Assembly: GCA_964388265.1 (NCBI GenBank) | Contig: CAYLXZ010000010.1 | Location: 1-25,796, forward strand | DNA length: 25,796 bases | Source: Candidatus Micrarchaeota archaeon | GTDB lineage: Archaea; B1Sed10-29 | Direction of reading: 5' to 3' | Shown: positions 3,362 through 25,796 of the stretch, piece after piece | How the letters are laid out: each line of letters begins with the position of its first letter | Position numbering within the stretch: the stretch's first letter is position 1 | Position numbers and translations under genes: made by a program | The notes under the pieces: generated by a model | The model's input: the letters and a program-made list of their open reading frames with translations, nothing else | Database searches by the model: none | Told to the model about the DNA's origin: nothing

Positions 3362-4273
3362 ATGGAAGAAGAGCCAAAATGCCCGAACTGCGGAGCCAAA
3401 AACACACGTAAAGACTACGAAAAAGGCGAAGTAATCTGCCAAGAATGCGGAACAATACTAGACGACTCAGTACTAGACAAAGGACCGGAATGGAGAGCGT
3501 TCACAACCGAAGAAATGGAAGAAAAACAAAGAACAGGCGGACCCAAAAAATACTCACGCATAGACAAAAACCTATCAACCGAAATAGATCAATTCAACAG
3601 AGACGCAAGAAGCAAGAAACTAAAAAGCGATGTATCCAGACAGATGCGGAAACTAAGAAGATGGCACAAAAAACTAACATACAACGACTCAAAAGCCAGA
3701 AACCTATCAGTAGCACTAAGCCAACTAAACAGAATCGCATCAGCACTATCACTACCCTCAAACATCATAGAACAAACAGCACTACTCTACAGAAAAATCC
3801 TGAACAAAGGACTGGTCAAAGGAAGAGTAATAGAAGAAGTCCTCGTAGCAACACTCTACATAATCTGCAGAAAAAGACAAATACCCAGAACACTACAAGA
3901 ACTAAGCGAAGTAGCAGGATCAGGAGCAAGTGAAAAAGCCATAGGAAGAACCTACAGAATGCTCAAAAACGAACTAGACATAGAAGTACCTCTACCAGAC
4001 CCAATAGAGTTCGTACCAAGATACGGCTCCGAACTAGAGCTCTCAGGAAAAGTACAAGAAAGAGCCAAGAGAATACTGAAAAAATCAAAAGAAAAAAGAC
4101 TAGTATCAGGAAAAGGACCAACAGGAGTAGCCGCAGCAGCACTCTACCTAGCAGCCAAAATAGAAGGAGAAAAAAGAACACAGAAAGAAGTATCAGAAGC
4201 AGCAAACGTCACAGAAGTAACAATAAGAAACAGATACAGAGAACTCAAAGAAAACCTAGACATAGAAGAATAA
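3362..4273 (+). CDS. tfb: Transcription initiation factor TFB
   Basis: Zinc ribbon CPNC/CQEC, B-reader GPEWRAF, two cyclin repeats, VTEVTIRNRY. Confidence 0.98.
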   Translation: MEEEPKCPNCGAKNTRKDYEKGEVICQECGTILDDSVLDKGPEWRAFTTEEMEEKQRTGGPKKYSRIDKNLSTEIDQFNRDARSKKLKSDVSRQMRKLRRWHKKLTYNDSKARNLSVALSQLNRIASALSLPSNIIEQTALLYRKILNKGLVKGRVIEEVLVATLYIICRKRQIPRTLQELSEVAGSGASEKAIGRTYRMLKNELDIEVPLPDPIEFVPRYGSELELSGKVQERAKRILKKSKEKRLVSGKGPTGVAAAALYLAAKIEGEKRTQKEVSEAANVTEVTIRNRYRELKENLDIEE

Positions 4274-4316: not shown

Positions 4317-6599
4317 ATGATAAAATCTCTTTCTCTCAAAAACTGGAAGAGCCACAAAGACACAGAACTAGACTTCACAGAAGAAACAAACGTCATAGTC
4401 GGAGAAATGGGCTCAGGGAAAACCAGCGCAATAGAAGCAATAAGCTACGGTTTGTTCGGAACATACCCAGCACTCAGATCCAGGAAAATAACCCTAGACG
4501 AAACCATAATGAACAAACCACAGAAAGAAAACCAAGCAGAAGTCAAAGTAGAATTCACAGCAAACCAAGAAACCTACACCGTGGAAAGAAAAATAGAAAG
4601 AGGAAAAACAACCAAAGCACAACTAAGAAAACAAGGAAAACTAATAGAAGGACCCAGCACCCGAAAAGTAACAGATACAATTGAAGAAATACTAGGAATA
4701 AACTACGAGCTATTCTCAAAAGCCGTATACGCCGAACAAAACCGAATGAACTACTTCCTAGAAATACCAAGAGGAAAAAGAAGAGAAAAAATAGATCAAC
4801 TGCTAGAACTGGACAGATGGGAAAACGCCAGAAAAAACCTAACAACAGTAGTAAACATACTAGAAGACAGAAAAAAAGAAAAAAAGAAGCAATCAAAAGA
4901 AACAGAAGAGACAGAGAACATAAAAGACCTAGAAACTAAAGTAAAAAGATTGAAACAAGAGATAAAGAAGAAAAAAAAGAAAAGAAACAAGATCAAGAAG
5001 AAACTGAAATCCATAAAGGAAAAACACCGGAAAGAGAAGAAGAAAAAGAAGAAGCATGAAAAACTCAAACAAGAGATAAATTCACTCAAGAATAAGACCC
5101 AGTACCTTGAAGAAGACCTAGAGCAACTGCCAAAAGCAGAAGACAAGGAAAAAATAAAAAAGAAACTACAAGAACTGAAGAAAAAGAAGAAAAAAGTAAA
5201 AAAGAAAACCAAGAAGAAGAATAAACTGGAAACACAGATAGAAACACTTCAAAAAAACCAGGAAGACCAAGAAAAAGAGATAAAATCCAAGAAAGAGAAG
5301 ATAAAGAAGATAAAACCAGAGGAAAAAGCAGAAAAGAAACTAGAACAAGTGAAAGAAAAGCTAGATGAACTGGAGAGCAAGGTGAAAGAGAACCAGGTGA
5401 AGAAGAACCAGCTAGAGAAAAACATGGAGAAAGAAGAGAAACACCTGGAGAAACTAAAAGCCGAAGAAGCCGAGTGCCCAGTATGCGGATCGGACCTAAC
5501 CGGAGGAAGAAAAGAAAAAGTAGTTCAAGACAAGAAAAAAGACATCAAGGACATAGAGAAAAAGAAACAAAAAAAGGAAAAAAAGATTAAAACACTCCAC
5601 AAAAAGATTAAAGAGAAAGAAAAAAGGAAGAAAGAACTAGAAAAAGAAAAGAAGAAGCTTGAAGAGAAAAAAGAAGAAAAAGAAGACCTGAAAGAACTTC
5701 AGAAAGAACTTAAAGAAACCAAGGAAAAAATAAAGAAACTAAAGAAAAAGAAAAAACAGATAGATATAAAGGAAAACGAAGAAGAGATAGAAAAAGAAAT
5801 AGATGAGACCGAAGAGAAACTAGAATACATAGAGAAATCAAAAAAGAAATCAAAGAAACAGAAAAAACTGAAAAAGAAAAAGAAGCAGAAGAAAGACCTG
5901 GAATTCAGTGAAGAGAAACTAGAAAAACTATACGATGAACTAAAATCCCTAGAAAACAAAGGCAATATACTAAGAGAGAAAGTGAATAGCGACAAAGAAC
6001 TTAAGAAAGAAAAAAACAAGAGACTGAAAGATCTTAAAGAAAAGAAAAAGAAAGCTGAAGAAGCTGAAAAGAAAGCAAAGTACCTAGAAGAACAACTTAA
6101 TTCATTGAAAAACCTCAAAGGATCTTTAAATAGAGTTCAAGATAAACTAAGAGAGAAGTTCACGGAAGAGACCAATATAGCTCTGGATAACGTCTGGAGA
6201 AAGATATACCCCTACGGAAACTACGAAACCCTCAGGCTAGGTGTAGAGGACGGAGACTACATCCTCCAAGCCAAGACCCAAAGCGGAGAATGGATTGACG
6301 TAGAAGGAAGAACCTCAGGAGGAGAAAGAAGCACTGCAGGACTCTGTCTAAGAATAGCTCTTGCACTCGTACTAACAGGAGATCTATCTTGGATCATACT
6401 GGATGAGCCAACCCATAACATGGATGAAAAAGCTATAGAGAACCTATCAGTAGCTCTAGGAAGCTATCTACATGAGATAATCGACCAAGTATTCATAATC
6501 ACACACGAACCAAAACTAAAGAAGGCTTCCTCTGGAACGTTCTACAGGTTCTCTAGAGATAAAGAAGAGAATGAACCCACGAACGTCCTGAGAGAATAA
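4317..6599 (+). CDS. rad50: DNA double-strand break repair ATPase Rad50
   Basis: Walker A GEMGSGKT, Q-loop, coiled coil with central zinc hook CPVCG, signature SGGE, LDEPT, ITH. Confidence 0.92.
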   Translation: MIKSLSLKNWKSHKDTELDFTEETNVIVGEMGSGKTSAIEAISYGLFGTYPALRSRKITLDETIMNKPQKENQAEVKVEFTANQETYTVERKIERGKTTKAQLRKQGKLIEGPSTRKVTDTIEEILGINYELFSKAVYAEQNRMNYFLEIPRGKRREKIDQLLELDRWENARKNLTTVVNILEDRKKEKKKQSKETEETENIKDLETKVKRLKQEIKKKKKKRNKIKKKLKSIKEKHRKEKKKKKKHEKLKQEINSLKNKTQYLEEDLEQLPKAEDKEKIKKKLQELKKKKKKVKKKTKKKNKLETQIETLQKNQEDQEKEIKSKKEKIKKIKPEEKAEKKLEQVKEKLDELESKVKENQVKKNQLEKNMEKEEKHLEKLKAEEAECPVCGSDLTGGRKEKVVQDKKKDIKDIEKKKQKKEKKIKTLHKKIKEKEKRKKELEKEKKKLEEKKEEKEDLKELQKELKETKEKIKKLKKKKKQIDIKENEEEIEKEIDETEEKLEYIEKSKKKSKKQKKLKKKKKQKKDLEFSEEKLEKLYDELKSLENKGNILREKVNSDKELKKEKNKRLKDLKEKKKKAEEAEKKAKYLEEQLNSLKNLKGSLNRVQDKLREKFTEETNIALDNVWRKIYPYGNYETLRLGVEDGDYILQAKTQSGEWIDVEGRTSGGERSTAGLCLRIALALVLTGDLSWIILDEPTHNMDEKAIENLSVALGSYLHEIIDQVFIITHEPKLKKASSGTFYRFSRDKEENEPTNVLRE

Positions 6600-6605
6600 A
6601 TCTAT

Positions 6606-6797
6606 CTAGAGCACTTCTTCTTGGGATAAATCGGTTAAATAGCCTGCTATGATGTTTCTATTAACCTTTGTCAGAGGAAGATCAAGTTCCTTTAACTCTT
6701 CCTTGTTCTCCTGGAAATCTGTAGAGAACCTCTCCGGTAGCTTTTCATAGATCTTCTGAGCTCTTCTTTTAACTATTCTGGTTCTCTGTTTACCCAA
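6606..6797 (-). CDS. rps17e: 30S ribosomal protein S17e (probable TTG start)
   Basis: GKQRT...FSTDFQENK...RNIIAGYLT; GGTGA SD upstream of TTG 6797. Confidence 0.92.
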   Translation of the reverse strand: MGKQRTRIVKRRAQKIYEKLPERFSTDFQENKEELKELDLPLTKVNRNIIAGYLTDLSQEEVL

Positions 6798-7008
6798 TTT
6801 CTTCACCTTGTAGATTTACTACTTCTTCTTCTCCGTTCGGGTATTTCCTGACAACGGATATAGGTAATACTTTTTCTTCAAATTCTTCTTTTGCTATTTC
6901 ATCGGATCTTGTTAGGTTCTTTGTATCTTCCAGTAGGACTGGGGCTCCCATTGATATCTGGAGAGCTCTGGCGGCTATTACTCTTGCTTCTTCGAATCTG
7001 GTTAACAC
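6790..7008 (-). CDS. rpoK: RNA polymerase subunit Rpo6/K (probable GTG start at 7008)
   Basis: LTRFE.AR.IAARALQISMGAP; GGTGA SD upstream of GTG 7008. Confidence 0.95.
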   Translation of the reverse strand: MLTRFEEARVIAARALQISMGAPVLLEDTKNLTRSDEIAKEEFEEKVLPISVVRKYPNGEEEVVNLQGEEIG

Positions 7009-7074
7009 TTTTATCACCGTGGTGGGTATCTATTTTACTCTTAGAGATTTAAAGGGTTTTGGAAAGATAAGGGG

Positions 7075-7347
7075 TTATTTTTCGATGTAGTCTTCGATTA
7101 ATTCGTATGCTCTGTTAACTGATTTCTCTACATCTTGTTCTTTTTCTCCTCCTGTGCAGATCATTTTTCCATTCTTGAATAAGAGGAGTGTTGTTCCAAG
7201 GTCTTTTAGTTTTAGTATTGCTCCTGGGAACTGTTCAGGTTCATATTCAACGTTTTCAACTTCCATCGCGATTCCGTATAGATCTAGCTCGACATCGAGG
7301 TTTGCTGATGCCACTATGTTCTCTATTTTGTAGTCTATTTTAGCCAT
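7075..7347 (-). CDS. Single-repeat TATA-binding protein-like protein (90 aa)
   Basis: IENIVAS, EYEPEQFPG, LLFKNGKMICTG form exactly one TBP repeat; SD AGGTGA; no second repeat. Confidence 0.9.
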   Translation of the reverse strand: MAKIDYKIENIVASANLDVELDLYGIAMEVENVEYEPEQFPGAILKLKDLGTTLLLFKNGKMICTGGEKEQDVEKSVNRAYELIEDYIEK

Positions 7348-7437
7348 GTTTTATCACCTTTTAAAAGTAGTTATTTATATTCCTATATCCGTCCTTTATA
7401 AAGGTTCAATCTTAGGGATTTTAGGCACTACATTTTC

Positions 7438-8046
7438 CTAAAGTTGGGAAAGAGATTCGATTATGTTTCCCTCTAAGTCTGGGTAGAGATCTTCAAGTAT
7501 CTGGAACGGTCTCTTGAGTCCCTTGAAGTTACTTACCATTTTATACGCTTCTTTATAGTGTTTTTCTCCAAATACTTGGGTAGATACTTTTCTGGTGACA
7601 GCGCATACTATAATATGTAGCCTTGTACGCGGCGCTTCATTAGGATAAATTTCTCTGAGGTGCTGGAGAACATCTGTAGTTGCTTCTCTGTTTTGAGTGA
7701 TTATTCTATGAGTTAATTCATGGACCAAAGTCTCGCAGACCAAGGCATACCTGTTGTCAATTTTTACTGTCAGAGGATCAGAAAAACCAGATACCGCTAG
7801 ATGGTTCACGAAGTACACTGGGATAGTTTCTTCTTTCCAATCAAGGCCTGTAGACTCTGATATGAATTTAAGAACAGTTTCTTCCTTTTCATCGGTCCAA
7901 TGCCCCTTCAAATCTTCTATGAAGTCGCTGTAGTTTTGTTCTGCTTCTTTTCTCTCGAAATTTTTTCCTTGAGATTTAGTTAGTTCTCTGTCGTAGGGTT
8001 TTGAGTACCTGAACTCTAACTCTGGCAAGTTATCCATATAATTCAC
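7438..8046 (-). CDS. Hypothetical protein with an HExxH (zincin-like) motif
   Basis: 202-aa ORF, ETLVHELTH; ATGA overlap with the herA stop. Confidence 0.65.
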   Translation of the reverse strand: MNYMDNLPELEFRYSKPYDRELTKSQGKNFERKEAEQNYSDFIEDLKGHWTDEKEETVLKFISESTGLDWKEETIPVYFVNHLAVSGFSDPLTVKIDNRYALVCETLVHELTHRIITQNREATTDVLQHLREIYPNEAPRTRLHIIVCAVTRKVSTQVFGEKHYKEAYKMVSNFKGLKRPFQILEDLYPDLEGNIIESLSQL

Positions 8047-9530
8047 ATGAATGCTTCGGCGTCTTTTTCTTGTTTTTCTTTGTTTTCTTCGAATCTCCTG
8101 GCTTGTTCTTCTAGGTTTTCTCCTAGTCCGATTTCGCTTGATTTCCTTTCCCTTATCTTTGCGAACACTGGGTTGCTTACTGCTTCTCCTACTATCAGGG
8201 ATTCTCCTACTCTAAGTGTGGTTAGTGATTCTAGTGAGTCTTGGTCTATTCCTTCACTTGTTTTGCTGATGTGATCTAGGTCGTGTGGGTTGGTTATTCT
8301 CATTATTATCTGGGTGTTGCATTGGCTGAGTGCTGTTGTGGATAGCTGCATTGGTCTTTGGCTTACTAGGCAGAGTGAGGCTCCGAACTTCCTTCCTTCT
8401 CTGGATATTGTTTCTATTATGTCTTTTGCTATTGCTTCTTCAGATTCTGCTCCTTCTTTGACGAAGTTATGTGCTTCTTCTACGAATAAGATGAATGGCG
8501 GTACATCTGTTTTTCTTCTTTTCTGGAATAGTCTTTCTGCGATGTAGGCTGTTAGCATTCTTCTTTCCTTCTGGCTAACCATTCTGCTTAAGTCTAAGAT
8601 GGTTAGTTCTCCTGGTGTGATTAATTGATCTATGCTTGATCCTGTTTCTGCGAATAAATCGCTTTCCAGGTTACGTAGCCATGCTACCAGCGCGTTCTGT
8701 AGTTTTTCATTCATTTCTTTGTCTTTCAGTATTTCTTCAACTATGTCTTCTATTCCGTATGGTCCTTCTCTCTGTCTGAGTGTGGTTATCGCGTTGTGTA
8801 GTTCTCTTTTTTGTGGTCTGCTCATTCCTGGTAGGAATACTGCGAAGTCTGATACGTTTAGTGATGATACTGGGATCTTGAAGTTCTTTCCGTCTATTTT
8901 GTTGGTTTTGGATCTGTATTTCTCGGATTCTGCGAAGCTCTTGTATTCTCCGTGTACGTCCATGACTATTGATGCTGGTCTTCCTTCTTCTCTTTCTCTA
9001 TCCAGCAGTTCTTCTATTAGTACAGATACTGTGTGGGTTTTTCCTGCTCCTGTTTGCGCTAGTACTGCTAGGTGTTTTTGGAATAGGTCGGTTAGGCTTA
9101 GTTTGGTTTCTATGTCATGGTGTTGTATTTTCCCTATGTTTAGTCCTTTTTCTTTGAATCCTAGGAAGTGTTTTAGTTCCTGTGGTTCTGGTTCTTTTAT
9201 CTCTGTGCCTGGTGATGGTGGCTGAGTGGGTCTTTTTATTAGTCCTTGTTGTTTGACTCCGAGTGCTTTTGCTTCTGCTACTGTGTATTCCCATTCTTCT
9301 GTTGGAAATTTTTCATCTAGCTTTGATCCGGTTCTTTCGATTTGGTGCATGGATTCTGGTTGATCGAAGTATTTGTTGGTTTTATGTAGGTCTTTTACCA
9401 TCGCGATGACTTTTCCTTGTGTTGATTGGTAGGATATGTATTGGTTTTTATCTGTGTCTTCTTTGTTGGCTAGGAAGTGTATCTCTGTGGGTGTTGGGGT
9501 TTCTTTGGTCGCGGTTATTCTTCCTATCAT
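8043..9530 (-). CDS. herA: HerA DNA translocase/helicase
   Basis: N-terminal HAS-barrel-like region, HLAVLAQTGAGKT, DVHGEY, VEEAHNF, REGRKFG, SQRP; adjacent to nurA. Confidence 0.93.
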   Translation of the reverse strand: MIGRITATKETPTPTEIHFLANKEDTDKNQYISYQSTQGKVIAMVKDLHKTNKYFDQPESMHQIERTGSKLDEKFPTEEWEYTVAEAKALGVKQQGLIKRPTQPPSPGTEIKEPEPQELKHFLGFKEKGLNIGKIQHHDIETKLSLTDLFQKHLAVLAQTGAGKTHTVSVLIEELLDREREEGRPASIVMDVHGEYKSFAESEKYRSKTNKIDGKNFKIPVSSLNVSDFAVFLPGMSRPQKRELHNAITTLRQREGPYGIEDIVEEILKDKEMNEKLQNALVAWLRNLESDLFAETGSSIDQLITPGELTILDLSRMVSQKERRMLTAYIAERLFQKRRKTDVPPFILFVEEAHNFVKEGAESEEAIAKDIIETISREGRKFGASLCLVSQRPMQLSTTALSQCNTQIIMRITNPHDLDHISKTSEGIDQDSLESLTTLRVGESLIVGEAVSNPVFAKIRERKSSEIGLGENLEEQARRFEENKEKQEKDAEAFM

Positions 9531-9562
9531 CTGTTTTCCTCCTGTTTATCTTTCTTGTTTTT

Positions 9563-10549
9563 CTACTTGAAGGGTCTTTTGTCTCTTCTTTCCTTCATCA
9601 TGAAGGGTTCTTCCCCTACGTATGTCTTTACTTCTTCTATGACTGAATCTGCTTCTTTTTCACTTATCTTTGCGTGTAAGTCGGCTTCTATTAGTGGTGC
9701 TGGATAGCTGTAGTCGCTTGATATCTTTGATAAAGACCCAAGTAAATCTATCATGTCACTTAAGTTTTTTTCTCCTTCTAGGTACTCTATTCTTAGTGGC
9801 TTGTCGTTTTTAACTAGCTTGAGGTAAACTACTTTTATCGCGTTTCTTATGTCGGGTGGTAGGTCCCTTAGTACTGGGTGGTTCCCGGGTTCGTCGGAGT
9901 AGTTGAACTTCTTGGTTCTTTCATCTTCCTCCAGAACGTAGTGCATGAGTATGGAGTCTAGTTTATCTTCTCCGTGTTTCTTGGCTATCTTCCTGGATTT
10001 ACTGTCCTCCACTACCCCTATGACCTGTGTTCCCTTATTTCTAGCTGTTTTAAATAACTTTTTATATTTCTCTATGAGTTCTTGGTATTTTTCTCTTTCT
10101 TTCTGGTTTTCTTCTTTTGGCTTGTCGCTTGGGTTTGGTACTATGGATCCGTCTAGTAGCAAGTAATCCGTAGGGTTATTTTCCAGTGACTCGCGGGCTG
10201 TTTCTATTTCTTTAATCGCTCTTAGTAGATTCGGTATCTTGTTTGATCTCTTTGGATCGATCGAGCTTACTTCTAGATCAGGTGAAGGGTTGGGGTAGTA
10301 GCTGTGATCTACTAGTCTTCCTTTCTTGTACTTCATGTTTGCTGCGCAGGCTCTTGTAACAACTATGCCAGTGCCCTGAAGATCCTGAGCTATAAGCCCC
10401 CCGTCCACTCCGGTCACGGTTCCGGTGAAGGAATCAATTTTGATTTCTCTTGCTATTTCTTCTTGTTCTCTTATCTTTCTGGCTTTTTCCTGAGTTCTCT
10501 GAGCCTGTTTCTTTATTTCTTGGGATAGGTTCTTTATCTCTTGCTCCAT
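9563..10549 (-). CDS. nurA: NurA 5'-3' nuclease
   Basis: GVDGG, LLDGS, GVVEDS, YPAPLIEAD; upstream of herA. Confidence 0.9.
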   Translation of the reverse strand: MEQEIKNLSQEIKKQAQRTQEKARKIREQEEIAREIKIDSFTGTVTGVDGGLIAQDLQGTGIVVTRACAANMKYKKGRLVDHSYYPNPSPDLEVSSIDPKRSNKIPNLLRAIKEIETARESLENNPTDYLLLDGSIVPNPSDKPKEENQKEREKYQELIEKYKKLFKTARNKGTQVIGVVEDSKSRKIAKKHGEDKLDSILMHYVLEEDERTKKFNYSDEPGNHPVLRDLPPDIRNAIKVVYLKLVKNDKPLRIEYLEGEKNLSDMIDLLGSLSKISSDYSYPAPLIEADLHAKISEKEADSVIEEVKTYVGEEPFMMKERRDKRPFK

Positions 10550-10607
10550 GTGTTAATTTGGTGCTGGAGGAATAAATCCTTTATTCCAGTGTGAGGGAAA
10601 GGTATAC

Positions 10608-11312
10608 ATGAAGTTCGTGTATAATGAACCAGCCGTGGTTTCAGGCGATAAACTAGTCATAGGAGACCTACATATAGGCTTGGAGTCCGAGTTAAGCAGA
10701 AGCGGAGTTAATGCTCCTAATCAGACCCAGGAGATGATGGATAGGGTCAGTAAGATGCTTTTCCAGAATAACTGCAGTGAATTAATCATCCTAGGTGACC
10801 TGAAACACGGAATACCCTGGGCAGAATGGGAAGAGAAGGAAAGCCTTAGAGACTTCGTTGAGGAGATGAAACGTAAAGCAGATCTAACAATAGTTAAAGG
10901 AAATCACGATGCCTCGATAGAAGAATACATCAACACAGAGGTAGCTGGTCCACATGGATATCGAAACGGAGACGAGTACTTTCTACATGGCCACGCGGAG
11001 CCCAGAGAGGAAGCATTCGAATGTAAGAAGATATATATGAGCCACCTACATGCTGTCTTGAAGTTGACAGACTCTCTTGGTAAGACAACCAGCCAGAAAA
11101 TATGGCTAACCGGAGAAACAGAGAAAGAAAGAGAGAAAGCAGAGTTAGTCATAGTACCCTCATTTAATAGATTGATATCCGGTCAAGATGTTAGAGAGAG
11201 TTTCATCGGGCCGATGAAGAAGTACCTAGACCCAGGTGAATTGAAAGCGCATTTACTGGACGGAACGGATCTAGGGAAACTCAGAGAACTGCCAAGGAAA
11301 AACTCCTCATAA
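10608..11312 (+). CDS. Calcineurin-like metallophosphoesterase (COG1407-like)
   Basis: GDLHIG, GDLKH, GNHD, HGH, HLH, VPSFN. Confidence 0.88.
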   Translation: MKFVYNEPAVVSGDKLVIGDLHIGLESELSRSGVNAPNQTQEMMDRVSKMLFQNNCSELIILGDLKHGIPWAEWEEKESLRDFVEEMKRKADLTIVKGNHDASIEEYINTEVAGPHGYRNGDEYFLHGHAEPREEAFECKKIYMSHLHAVLKLTDSLGKTTSQKIWLTGETEKEREKAELVIVPSFNRLISGQDVRESFIGPMKKYLDPGELKAHLLDGTDLGKLRELPRKNSS

Positions 11313-12087: not shown

Positions 12088-12633
12088 ATGGGAGTAGGCA
12101 TCACCCTAGAAGAAATAATGAAGAAAGCAGTAGTAACCGTGAAACCAAGCGACTCAATCCAGAAAGTCGCAGACACAATGGCAAAAACCGGAATAGGCGG
12201 AGTAATAGCAACAGAACACAGCAAGATAAAAGGAATAGTCACAGAAGGAGACATAATCTCAGAAGTAGTCGCAGAACAAGAAAACTTCAAAGAAAAAACA
12301 GTTGAACAAGTAATGAAGACACCAGTCAAGACAGCTAAGAAACACACCGACGTGGAAGAAGCCCTAAAAATAATGAGAGACCTAGACATAGAAAGACTGC
12401 CAATAGAAGAAAACGGAGAACTCGTAGGAATAGTCACAGAAAGAGACCTAGTAAGAGTAGAACCAGCACTAATAGAGATGGCAAGAGAAAAACAAGCCGT
12501 GACAAACAGGCCAGAAATAGAAAAAGAAGTAGAAGTAACGGGAAAATGCGAAGAATGCGGAAACATATCAAACCACCTAAGAAGAATGGAAGGCAAGCTA
12601 CTCTGCCCAGAATGCAGAGACCTAGAACTATAA
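12088..12633 (+). CDS. CBS-pair protein with C-terminal zinc ribbon
   Basis: GIVTEGD and GIVTERD; GKCEEC...LCPEC. Confidence 0.9.
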   Translation: MGVGITLEEIMKKAVVTVKPSDSIQKVADTMAKTGIGGVIATEHSKIKGIVTEGDIISEVVAEQENFKEKTVEQVMKTPVKTAKKHTDVEEALKIMRDLDIERLPIEENGELVGIVTERDLVRVEPALIEMAREKQAVTNRPEIEKEVEVTGKCEECGNISNHLRRMEGKLLCPECRDLEL

Positions 12634-12643
12634 AGGGATCAAA

Positions 12644-13552
12644 ATGAAAAGAACAGCAGAAAGAACCAGAAAAAGATTCAACATCCCAAAAAAAGGATCA
12701 AGAAGAAAAGACACGGAGAAACACGAAACCAAGCCAGAGCTAGAGTACGTTATGGACAAAACAACTCCAATAACAGAGACAACCACAGTCAAGAAAACAG
12801 CTGAAAAAATGCTGGAAGAAAGAGAAAAAAGACTTCCAGTAACCGACCCAGGAACACAGAGACTAAAAGGAGACATAAAAGCACTGGATATCCTGGACCT
12901 ATTCGGAGGAGGAGTAAAGAGCAACATAATAGAACAAAAATTCAAAGGAAACATACCAGAAGCCCTGAATCTACAGATAAAGAAGATAATGAACCAAGAC
13001 CCCGAATCAATAGATTTAAAGACAAAACTCGAAGAATCAATAAAGAAACTGGTAGAAACCCATACCGACACGCTACACGTAACCCAAGAAAATAAGATAG
13101 TAGGAGAACTCACGGAAGAAAAAATAGTGGATATCCTAGCTAGCGTAGAAGGAGAAAAGAAAGTAGAAAAAGCAATGACATTCAACCCAGTGACCGCAGG
13201 ACCAGGATACAAAGTAGCGGACGCATGCAAAGTAATGGTAAGAAACAACTTCAACCGACTGCCAGTAGTATCAGAACACGAACTAAAAGGAATAGTAACT
13301 TACGCGGACCTACTAAAATACTTCTCCAAAGAAATGTTCACACTAAGCAACGCCACCATGGAACACGAAGCATTCAACGTAATCATAGAGAACATAATGA
13401 CACGTGAACCAGTTACAATATCCGTGAACGCAACTCTAGATGAAGCAGGTGAAAAAATGAAGGAAACAGGCCACGGAGGAATACCTGTGACCGAAGGAAA
13501 TCAAATTATAGGTATAATAACGAGAAGAGATATAATAAAGGTGATAAAATGA
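12644..13552 (+). CDS. Four-CBS-domain protein
   Basis: RLPV, GIVTYAD and GIITRRD CBS motifs. Confidence 0.88.
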   Translation: MKRTAERTRKRFNIPKKGSRRKDTEKHETKPELEYVMDKTTPITETTTVKKTAEKMLEEREKRLPVTDPGTQRLKGDIKALDILDLFGGGVKSNIIEQKFKGNIPEALNLQIKKIMNQDPESIDLKTKLEESIKKLVETHTDTLHVTQENKIVGELTEEKIVDILASVEGEKKVEKAMTFNPVTAGPGYKVADACKVMVRNNFNRLPVVSEHELKGIVTYADLLKYFSKEMFTLSNATMEHEAFNVIIENIMTREPVTISVNATLDEAGEKMKETGHGGIPVTEGNQIIGIITRRDIIKVIK

Positions 13553-14379
13553 ATTCAAATATAGAAGTAAAAGATATAATGACACGGGAAGTGCCTGTAG
13601 TATCCGAAGAAGACCCAGTAGCAAGGATAAGAAACATATTCCTAAACAAAAACATCTCAAGCATACTCGTATACGAAGACGAGCCAAAAGGAATAATAAC
13701 AAAAGGAGACATATCCAGAGCATTCGTAGAAGAAAGAAGAGGAATAGACGAAGTAAGAGTAAGAGAAATAATGACAAGATCCCTAGTAAAAACAGAAATG
13801 GAAGAAGAACCAGAGAAAGCAGCAAAAAAGATAATAGAACACAACATCTCATCACTACCAGTAATAGAGGATAAAGAAGTGAAAGGGATACTTACAAAGA
13901 ACGATCTAACCAGATACTACGCCAACCACTTCAGAGGAAAGAACCAAGTAAAGGATCTGATGACAGAAGACGTGGAAACAGTTCAAGAAAACCAGTCAAT
14001 ATTCCACGTAGCCAAAGAGATGAACGAGAAAAACATATCAAGACTAGTAGTCATAAGAAGCAAAGAACCAATAGGAATAATCACAGAGAAAGACATAACC
14101 CTAGCAACCCAAGGACTACACCCAAGCTCCATAAGCTATCAATCAACCGACGAAGAAGGACAGACACACAAAAGAAAAACAATGTACCCAATGATAGCAT
14201 CCGACATAATGCAAGAGAACCTGAAAACAACGGAGAAAAAAGAAGATAGCTCCAAAGCAGGAGAAAAAATGCTGGAACAAGAGATCGGGAGCCTAGTAGT
14301 AATAGAAAACAAAAGGCTGGAAGGAATAATAACGAAGACCGACTTCGTGAAACACCTAGCACAGAAAGATAAGGATTAA
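13549..14379 (+). CDS. Four-CBS-domain protein
   Basis: GIITKGD, GILTKND, GIITEKD, GIITKTD. Confidence 0.9.
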   Translation: MNSNIEVKDIMTREVPVVSEEDPVARIRNIFLNKNISSILVYEDEPKGIITKGDISRAFVEERRGIDEVRVREIMTRSLVKTEMEEEPEKAAKKIIEHNISSLPVIEDKEVKGILTKNDLTRYYANHFRGKNQVKDLMTEDVETVQENQSIFHVAKEMNEKNISRLVVIRSKEPIGIITEKDITLATQGLHPSSISYQSTDEEGQTHKRKTMYPMIASDIMQENLKTTEKKEDSSKAGEKMLEQEIGSLVVIENKRLEGIITKTDFVKHLAQKDKD

Positions 14380-24746: not shown

Positions 24747-25796
24747 CTCTTTTGGGTGAGAAGCCCCTATCCTCAATCTTTAATTTAGGTTAGGGATGAA
24801 TCACCATTATTAACTCATAAGAGTTAAAAAAAGGTTAAATAAGAAAAGAACACTAATATAGGTAGACTAAGATGAATTTAAGCTACAAATACCGCTTATA
24901 CCCATCCAAACAAGACAAACAGAGAATGAAGAAACACCTCGACCTATGCAGACAGGTTTATAATCACTTTCTTGAAAAATTGAATGAATTTGAGGAAATC
25001 CCTTCTTGTTATGATTTACAAGAAGAACTGCCAGAATTAAAACAAGAATGGGAAGAACTGCAACAAATACATAGTAAGACTTTACAGATGGTTCTCAAAC
25101 AACTTTACGACAACCTAAAATCCCTATCCAAGAGAAAAAAGAACGGTTATAAAGTAGGGAAACTAAGATATAAGGGCAAAGGATGGTTCAAAACCATAGA
25201 ATACAACCAATCAGGATTCAAACTCAAAAAAACAGAAAACAGACTCGACAAATTACAATTATCGAAGATAGGAGAAATACCCATCAGACTACACAGAAAA
25301 CTCAAAGGAGAAATCAAAGGAGTAATAATCAAGCGAGACAAAGCAGGAGACTGGTACGCAATATTCCAAACAAAACAAGAAACAGAAAAAACAGATATAA
25401 AGAAACAAGATAATGTCGAAGCAGTAGGTATTGACCTAGGAATCCGGAAATTCATAGTAGACAGCGAAGGTAACAGAATAGAACATCCAAAAAACGTAGA
25501 AAAAGCAGAAAAAAGACTAAAAAAAGAACAGAGAAACCTCTCACGAAAAGAAAAAGGAAGCAACAACTACGAAAAACAGAGAAAAAGAGTAGCAAAGATA
25601 CATAAACGCGTGAAAAACAGACGAATGGACTTCCTACACAAACTATCCAACGCCTACGTCAGAAAATACGACAAAATAATACTAGAAAACCTAAACATCT
25701 CAAAAATGGTTCAAGGTAAGATGAACAGTAAGAACACAATAGACTCTGCATGGAGAACATTCATCCAACTACTCCTGTACAAAGCCGAAAAAGCTG
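24747..25796 (+). mobile_element. IS200/IS605-family (IS1341-like, tnpB-only in view) element, left part
   Basis: Subterminal imperfect hairpin GAAG-CCCCTATCCT...AGGTTAGGG-ATGAATCAC (24760-24804) upstream of tnpB; left boundary inferred. Confidence 0.7.
24872..25796 (+). CDS. tnpB: TnpB RNA-guided nuclease (truncated by window end)
   Basis: Manual translation MNLSYKYRLYP...CRQVYN...LSKIGEI...VGIDLG (RuvC-I)...DFLHKLS...ILENL (RuvC-II)...YKAEKA; open to the window end. Confidence 0.95.
   Translation, partial: MNLSYKYRLYPSKQDKQRMKKHLDLCRQVYNHFLEKLNEFEEIPSCYDLQEELPELKQEWEELQQIHSKTLQMVLKQLYDNLKSLSKRKKNGYKVGKLRYKGKGWFKTIEYNQSGFKLKKTENRLDKLQLSKIGEIPIRLHRKLKGEIKGVIIKRDKAGDWYAIFQTKQETEKTDIKKQDNVEAVGIDLGIRKFIVDSEGNRIEHPKNVEKAEKRLKKEQRNLSRKEKGSNNYEKQRKRVAKIHKRVKNRRMDFLHKLSNAYVRKYDKIILENLNISKMVQGKMNSKNTIDSAWRTFIQLLLYKAEKA

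Follow-up and report, generated by a model that had tools for sequence, protein, structure and literature searches.

The textbook view of TBP is of a universally two-lobed, pseudo-symmetric protein whose origin lies in the duplication of a single lobe. To our knowledge, a homodimeric stage of TBP has hitherto been hypothetical and was postulated only for the ancestor of the protein. The locus studied here raises the question of how an archaeon transcribes its genes with a TBP gene that encodes one lobe. It lies in a stretch of 25,796 nucleotides from a Candidatus Micrarchaeota archaeon (assembly GCA_964388265.1, contig CAYLXZ010000010.1), the whole of which is referred to below as the window. 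The gene is the following.

7075–7347, reverse strand: half-TBP coding sequence, 90 aa, ATG start, stop codon included, with a single PF00352 stretch.

The first-pass annotation of this DNA described an intact ORF of 90 aa that holds exactly one TBP repeat, and both the ORF listing and Pfam bear this out. The PF00352 match scores 96.8 bits against a cut-off of 22.9 and runs from residue 5 to residue 86, which is profile positions 1–84 of 85. The two tandem repeats per chain that characterize canonical TBP are absent; one repeat occupies the 90-aa ORF. The motifs singled out in the annotation are all found in the translation (ENIVAS, EYEPEQFPG, LLLFKNGK and ICTGG), and the good SD that it claimed is AGGTGAT at 7353–7359, 5 nt 5′ of the ATG. 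When the protein is mapped by alignment to 1mp9 and 2z8u, the DNA-kinking Phe pair and the central Asn/Thr are present at the sequence level. So is the acidic stirrup motif for TFB/TFIIB docking, and its EYEPEQFPG is identical to the C-lobe stirrup motif of both structures. The roles of the Phe kinks, the Asn/Thr and the stirrup glutamates we take to be those of eukaryotic and archaeal TBP structures, with the positions transferred by sequence alignment. Twenty alignment columns are invariant across 31 single-repeat relatives (alignment A1). These include N10, F40, F57 and the EYEPEQFPG stirrup, each conserved in 31 of 31; position 65 of the half-TBP is Thr. Some single-repeat TBPs carry N-terminal extensions of 70–135 aa, giving ORFs of 155–226 aa, and others have short lysine-rich N- or C-terminal tails (L121, L125, L123 and L021 of family f9; L018, L108, L110 and L023). 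The half-TBP of the window has neither extension nor tail.

The same gene has been assembled elsewhere. In a second sample of the same study, a 424-nt contig spans 7066–7489 with 0 differences, and a 745-nt contig from a different study spans 6820–7435 with 53 substitutions and three one-base gaps, all of these gaps outside the ORF. Runs X3 and X4 returned identical figures and are probably one data set filed twice. Sediment and brine are the habitats of these contigs. For 6400–8200, a search for runs that contain the locus listed no RNA data set. Against a ~91%-identical relative, all 13 of the ORF differences listed are silent, comprising 12 synonymous third-position changes and one change of TAA to TGA; this tally covers the 13 differences listed, and there are four further differences in the same stretch. 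Synonymous sites have reached or almost reached saturation between the family orthologues. For the pairs that allow an estimate of dS, dN/dS is 0.07 (L025 versus L027, dS 1.14) and 0.08–0.09 (the window versus L025, L027 and L024, dS 2.0–2.9). Judged by these substitutions, the half-TBP is under purifying selection.

The predicted fold is that of one lobe. The AF2 monomer model (pLDDT 92.6) has the element order S1-H1-S2-S3-S4-S5-H2, which is the topology of a TBP lobe, and it superimposes on single lobes of 2z8u, 1mp9 and 1ytb with TMq 0.85–0.90 and rmsd 1.0–1.5 Å. At E ≤ 1e-3, all 44 Foldseek matches to the model are TBPs, each covering one lobe. Residues 1–11 of the model have no strand, and the first ten have a pLDDT of 76; this unstranded N-terminus would be compatible with an interface strand and proves nothing. 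The half-TBP matches both lobes of a canonical protein equally well, with 67.1 and 63.0 bits to the two lobes of 1mp9 and 58.2 and 62.2 bits to those of 2z8u.

We then asked whether this is the sole TBP of the genome. The assembly (G000) has 725,682 bases in 45 contigs and is 82% complete. It was searched in six frames, filters off, with two HMMs, one built from the single-repeat relatives and one from all repeats. The half-TBP frame alone was returned (E 2e-46 and 6e-37), and the next best match had E > 1. The annotation had reported no second repeat near rpoK, and this holds for the flanks and for the rest of the 725 kb. The search that it proposed for a full-length TBP or another half found neither in this 82%-complete assembly. 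A 14-bit Pfam TBP match on contig C11 is antisense to a 194-aa ORF and is read as chance. Five relatives that are 91–96% complete, one of them (G011) in 2 contigs, were searched with the A1 profile of 31 single-repeat proteins, and four of the five have exactly one single-repeat frame and nothing else. The fifth, G010, has one half-TBP plus a fragment of 17–24 bits at profile positions 39–87, broken by a TAA (G010:C3:8924-9055), which may be the trace of a second lobe that was lost, or a chance match. An 18-bit TBP match in G003 and G005 was considered as a partner and rejected, since it is the C-terminal part of a 323-aa frame that is ThiF/MoeB-like, a label read from sequence alone (L139, G003:C6 1266-2237, reverse strand). 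The C-terminal segment of that frame resembles S4-S5-H2 of a TBP lobe, and the same is seen in G005.

The surroundings of the gene bear on both its integrity and its history. The neighbouring features are as follows.

6790–7017, reverse strand: rpoK, an Rpb6/omega-like RNA polymerase subunit (PF01192, 33.9 bits), immediately downstream of the half-TBP.
6606–6806, reverse strand: rps17e (PF00833, 38.9 bits), identified also by synteny, the last gene of the TBP-rpoK-rps17e cluster.
3362–4270, forward strand: TFB, 303 aa, with Zn ribbon and two cyclin repeats (PF08271, PF00382).
4317–6599, forward strand: Rad50, of the repair cluster.
7438–8046, reverse strand: 202-aa ORF without a Pfam match, between HerA and the half-TBP.
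8043–9530: HerA, of the repair cluster.
9563–10549: NurA, of the repair cluster.
10608–11312: Mre11-like phosphoesterase, of the repair cluster.

TBP-rpoK-rps17e is thus embedded in a double-strand-break repair cluster (window 4317–11312), an arrangement conserved in the family. The order TBP-rpoK-rps17e is kept in all four family relatives with an uncut locus, the fifth relative being cut by contig ends, and so is the longer order NurA-HerA-halfTBP-rpoK-rps17e, converging on Rad50. Because HerA directly precedes the TBP gene in the four uncut relatives, the 202-aa ORF is an insertion specific to the window's genome. The annotation took the position beside rpoK and rps17e and near tfb as an argument for function. 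Pfam confirms the genes, but the rpoK/rps17e context is specific to this family and is no general TBP context. A second TFB gene is on contig C5, and both TFBs of the genome keep two cyclin repeats. In the ~91%-identical relative, one of the one-base gaps falls at 7011, within the first codons of the reading of rpoK from GTG 7017; therefore, the true start is probably GTG 7008, giving 72 aa. The rpoK genes of relatives encode 64–71 aa. The spacer of 66 bp that had been reported before rpoK is correct for a start at GTG 7008, while a start at GTG 7017 would make it 57 bp. Elsewhere in the window, the Rad50 coiled coil is extremely lysine-rich, with many runs of 4–7 K that produce long spurious antisense ORFs rich in F, S and L; three consecutive CBS-domain genes (181, 302 and 276 aa) occupy 12088–14379 on the forward strand; and an IS605-family OrfB/TnpB-type gene (PF01385, PF12323) begins at 24872 on the forward strand and runs off the end at 25796.

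Outside the family, single-repeat genes (L013, L015, L108 and L024) adjoin a divergently transcribed rpl21e. Two-repeat genes (L009, L127, L032, L038, L041 and L128) also adjoin divergent rpl21e, and the same slot often holds rpoF and a small membrane-protein ORF as well. It is beside rpl21e that TBP genes of the group commonly sit. An ORF conserved upstream of the TBP gene in relatives was considered as a TBP partner and rejected; it encodes a hydrophobic small membrane protein and also adjoins two-repeat TBPs. The window's genome keeps the rpl21e slot on contig C2, in the order DUF655, rpoF, rpl21e, a 109-aa membrane ORF, a 224-aa ORF and THUMP. That slot (L138, G000:C2 3569-4573) is empty: 0 nt separate the membrane ORF from the 224-aa ORF that converges on it. 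The 224-aa ORF shares 34% identity with the next gene downstream of TBP in G010. With the slot kept but empty, it follows that the half-TBP moved into the DNA-repair cluster and that no second lobe gene was left behind. What is new in this family is the move of the gene from the ancestral rpl21e slot to the HerA/rpoK site.

The single-repeat form extends well beyond this genome. The seven closest public loci (64–75% identity) are all single-repeat ORFs of 91–108 aa, and the next tier (about 58% identity) consists of two-repeat ORFs of 191–214 aa. The closest public records are labelled as Candidatus Micrarchaeota or Iainarchaeum MAGs. Among 21 genomes of the class at set completeness, nine have just one single-repeat gene, seven have two or three that are unlinked, four have a fused two-repeat gene, and one has pieces at two contig ends. 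This makes 16 of 21 genomes that have single-repeat genes only, with one of the 16 (G023) also having a highly diverged 217-aa two-repeat frame. A canonical-type TBP is absent from all 21. In a collection of 5.8 billion proteins, 991 of 997 candidates of 49–158 aa match at E ≤ 1e-10. Most of these are named ‘hypothetical protein’ or ‘TATA-box-binding protein’, and several are on contigs of 0.27–1.08 Mb. Of the top 150 representatives at 50% clustering, 8 show a single matched stretch and all others two to four. Four TBP repeats per chain occur in L129 (G012:C8 2985-5144, 719 aa) and in P0001, P0008 and P0029 (376, 702 and 329 aa), and three in P0002 (272 aa). A one-lobe TBP is the rule in this DPANN class. 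In the library of papers that was searched, no lineage was found described with a one-repeat TBP as its sole TBP. None is described in the available parts of PMC7221094, PMC13257274, PMC8407392, PMC12917281, PMC3597702, PMC4910066 and PMC5501381.

To place the single lobes relative to the N and C lobes of canonical TBP, 199 distinct repeats were extracted from all fetched loci. A quick tree of 114 repeats included 11 of the 57 distant canonical loci and excluded the others, together with the four-repeat protein and one protein that is very diverged. For an IQ-TREE tree of 88 repeats, near-duplicates, fragments at contig ends and six loci with long branches (ten rows) were removed as well. In the latter tree, 32 canonical repeats (16 N and 16 C) are split from 56 repeats of the group (35 single, 10 N and 11 C) by a branch supported at 100/99, and the canonical C lobes form a clade (99/92). 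A tree with all C lobes apart from all N lobes is rejected by the AU test (lnL difference 84.6, p 0.0026), a result that applies to an unrooted tree and to a grouping chosen after sight of the quick tree. The half-TBP sits in a clade of single-copy genomes (96/96), and the unlinked half-genes of the class fall in two paralogue clades, A and B. In the fused genes of the group, the N and C lobes pair within lineages (L019, 95/85; L041/L042, 99/100; L038/L039, 99/82). The identity of the N lobe to the C lobe is 70–79% in the fused genes of the window's order, as against 36–55% in most canonical TBPs (63% in one).

A lobe score, taken as HMM bits to a canonical N model minus bits to a canonical C model, gives the same picture. 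Held-out canonical lobes score +15.6 bits (N) and −18.0 bits (C). The single lobes of the group average +3.9 ± 4.3 bits, neither N-like nor C-like, and the group's own fused lobes score +2.1 bits (N) and +0.2 bits (C). The half-TBP of the window scores 98.1 bits with the N model and 101.0 with the C model. Since these scores are neither N-like nor C-like, the lobes of the class are undifferentiated, and the fused and paired forms derive from a single lobe and not from a canonical N/C gene. Fission of a canonical gene was considered as the source of the unlinked pairs and rejected. The two paralogue clades score +3.0 and +6.8 bits; because A and B do not divide into an N-like and a C-like set, they come from the duplication of a lobe that was undifferentiated. 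In sequence, fold and locus, the half-TBP is a TBP; its architecture is new.

Since only half of a two-lobed TBP is encoded, the transcription factor probably works as a pair of identical halves. We consider it likely that the sole TBP of the organism is a symmetric homodimeric saddle, with the direction of transcription set by TFB and BRE. The annotation had offered three options, namely a homodimer, a split TBP and a regulatory paralogue, and the homodimer is the best supported of them because no other TBP-domain gene is found in the genome or in four of the five near-complete relatives. Two identical chains would pair through their S1 strands and H2 helices to form the ten-stranded saddle of canonical TBP. 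Each chain would bring one DNA-kinking Phe pair (F40 and F57), the central Asn/Thr (N10 and T65) and one acidic stirrup (EYEPEQ). That head-to-tail fused relatives exist with lobes 70–79% identical suggests, by analogy, that two such lobes can pack as a saddle, and the near-equal N and C scores of the group's lobes would fit a symmetric TBP. TFB is the expected partner of TBP in archaeal pre-initiation complexes, and we presume that the half-TBP dimerizes, binds DNA and recruits TFB. The symmetric dimer would bind TATA boxes of the TTTAAA/TTTATAAA type. Which way transcription runs would be decided by TFB, which would read the flanking BRE and dock on the stirrup that faces it. According to the part of PMC5501381 available, which cites Bell et al. 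1999, the archaeal pre-initiation complex is oriented by contacts between TFB and the BRE.

Two upstream regions in the window have BRE/TATA-like elements.

7348–7437, reverse strand: half-TBP 5′ region, with the SD, an AT-rich element ATATAAATAACT and a BRE/TATA-like palindrome CCTTTATAAAGG at 7393–7404.
7047–7060, reverse strand: BRE/TATA-like element AAAACCCTTTAAAT in the spacer before rpoK, of putative function.

In the 5′ regions of the family, the conserved order is ACCTTTATAAA and then ATATAAATAACT..CTTTTAAA.AGGTGAT. The ACCTTTATAAA stretch is invariant in all five family upstream regions, although the synonymous sites of the half-TBP gene are saturated, and the SD site is kept in four of the five. 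CCTTTATAAAGG is a perfect palindrome, unique in the window, and 0 of 100 shuffles match it. The half-TBP appears to have its own conserved putative promoter. The promoter-like sequence noted earlier before rpoK is indeed there, with AAAACCCTTTAAAT occurring once in the window. It scores 10.3 bits, the 98th percentile of 381 upstream regions, on a weak genome-wide promoter motif. That motif, found by EM, is AAA..TTTAAAT.CC; it amounts to about 4.6 bits, with a broad distribution of positions, and the forward strand beats the reverse in only 229 of the 381 regions. It speaks neither for nor against an unusually palindromic TATA box. Because the genome-wide motif is weak and favours the forward strand in just those 229 regions, a BRE able to orient a symmetric TBP stays putative.

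The strongest competitor is a split TBP like those of other families of the class, with the partner half-gene in the 18% of the genome that is missing from the assembly, and we regard it as unlikely. It draws on the 82% completeness of G000 and on the seven of 21 class genomes that have two or three unlinked single-repeat genes in two paralogue clades; given those seven genomes with different half-genes, heterodimers are a viable design in the lineage. The pairing with a second half-gene that had been proposed is therefore real in other families of the class, but no such gene was found in this genome or this family. No second frame appears in 725 kb. All four family relatives with an uncut locus have one copy, including G001 at 91% completeness, as do G011 in its 2 contigs, G014 and G019, and G010 adds only the stop-bearing fragment of 17 bits. 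The position of the half-TBP within the clade of single-copy genomes points the same way.

It is also quite improbable, in our estimation, that the protein forms no saddle and is a monomeric nucleic-acid-binding or regulatory protein, with promoters recognized by TFB or by an unrecognized factor. Monopartite TBP-domain proteins do exist in Archaea, namely Halobacterium TbpA and the 82–136-aa proteins of Thermococcales (Brindefalk et al. 2013, PMC3597702), and the part of that article available to us describes functionally uncharacterized stand-alone TBP-fold proteins in Thermococcales and single TBP-like domains acting in RNase HIII. However, those monopartite proteins, as there described, all co-exist with at least one full-length TBP, the Thermococcales proteins have diverged far from TBP, and TbpA is dispensable. 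The half-TBP is a stand-alone single TBP domain like them, but it is undiverged at 96.8 bits and has no full-length TBP beside it, so that it departs from them in two of three features. All of its DNA-contact and stirrup motifs are invariant, and in relatives, the half-TBP is found at the locus that in other relatives holds a two-repeat TBP.

It seems very improbable that the half-TBP is an accessory paralogue of a canonical two-repeat TBP missing from the assembly. The support for this is solely the 82% completeness of the genome, together with the precedent of Halobacterium TbpA as a truncated paralogue in the part of PMC3597702 available. The idea of a regulatory paralogue raised in the annotation is unsupported because there is no full-length TBP for the half-TBP to regulate. 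A canonical-type TBP occurs in none of the 21 genomes of the class, the lobes of the four fused genes come from the same clade, and the sole other two-repeat frame, in G023, is highly diverged. Finally, an artefact or decaying remnant, whether by recent deletion, misassembly or pseudogene formation, is barely conceivable and is refuted as far as sequence data can do so: nothing was found in its support, two further assemblies reproduce the gene and its flanks, the gene is intact and single-repeat in every family member at the same HerA/rpoK site, with no close relative having a two-repeat TBP there, and synonymous sites are saturated, yet dN/dS is low and the putative promoter is conserved.

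As to how the class came to this state, its ancestor would have lost either the differentiation of the lobes or one lobe. In some families, duplication of the single lobe would later have given unlinked pairs, and in others, a tandem re-fusion. By organism phylogeny, the class is nested among archaea with canonical N and C lobes; the canonical-lobe archaea in our tree include other DPANN, such as the Aenigmatarchaeota rows. Because of this nesting, secondary loss is the more economical history. The opposite history, in which the group is a direct survivor of the state before duplication, the N/C duplication and fusion seen in all other archaeal and eukaryotic TBPs came after the divergence of this lineage, and the fusions within the class are independent, later re-inventions, we hold to be very unlikely. 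In that history, the late duplication would be the reason that the group's lobes branch apart from the canonical N and C lobes alike and score as neither. The annotation had noted the resemblance to the proposed ancestor of TBP. The resemblance stands as a functional analogy; for descent, organism phylogeny favours secondary reduction.

Set against known systems, the half-TBP is closest in kind to canonical archaeal TBP (S. acidocaldarius 1MP9, M. jannaschii 2Z8U and P. woesei 1AIS/1PCZ). It shares with these the Pfam family, the lobe fold and the DNA-contact and stirrup motifs, with about 41–43% identity to either lobe, and its relatives share the slot beside rpl21e. Unlike canonical TBP, it has one lobe per chain, which is neither N-type nor C-type, and a saddle would need non-covalent homodimerization. 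The unlinked half-TBP pairs and re-fused TBPs of sister families belong to the same lobe clade (100/99) and are 53–70% identical to the half-TBP of the window. In the sister families, half-genes come as two or three paralogues or as a tandem fusion with lobes 70–79% identical, whereas the window's family has a single gene, moved to HerA/rpoK. The TBP-fold domains of larger enzymes likewise work as a single unit without a tandem partner, but their sequence similarity is remote (18 bits for the ThiF-like protein of G003 and G005), and they are not transcription factors. In the part of Adachi et al. 2016 (PMC4910066) available, all TBP repeats of 34 species are derived from one duplication. The group studied here, on its repeat sequences, departs from that pattern.

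A whole archaeal class, then, appears to run its transcription on a one-lobe TBP. One clade offers three natural states, namely a single gene, for which a homodimer is expected, unlinked genes, for which a heterodimer is expected, and re-fused tandem genes. The fused architecture of TBP would thus be reversible and re-evolvable. This affects the use of the split between N and C repeats as an ‘internal clock’ or as the root of TBP trees, for which one duplication is assumed in the available part of PMC4910066. With small and easily expressed proteins, it becomes possible to test whether a symmetric TBP can initiate directionally, what share of the polarity belongs to TFB-BRE, and why fusion and lobe differentiation were favoured elsewhere.
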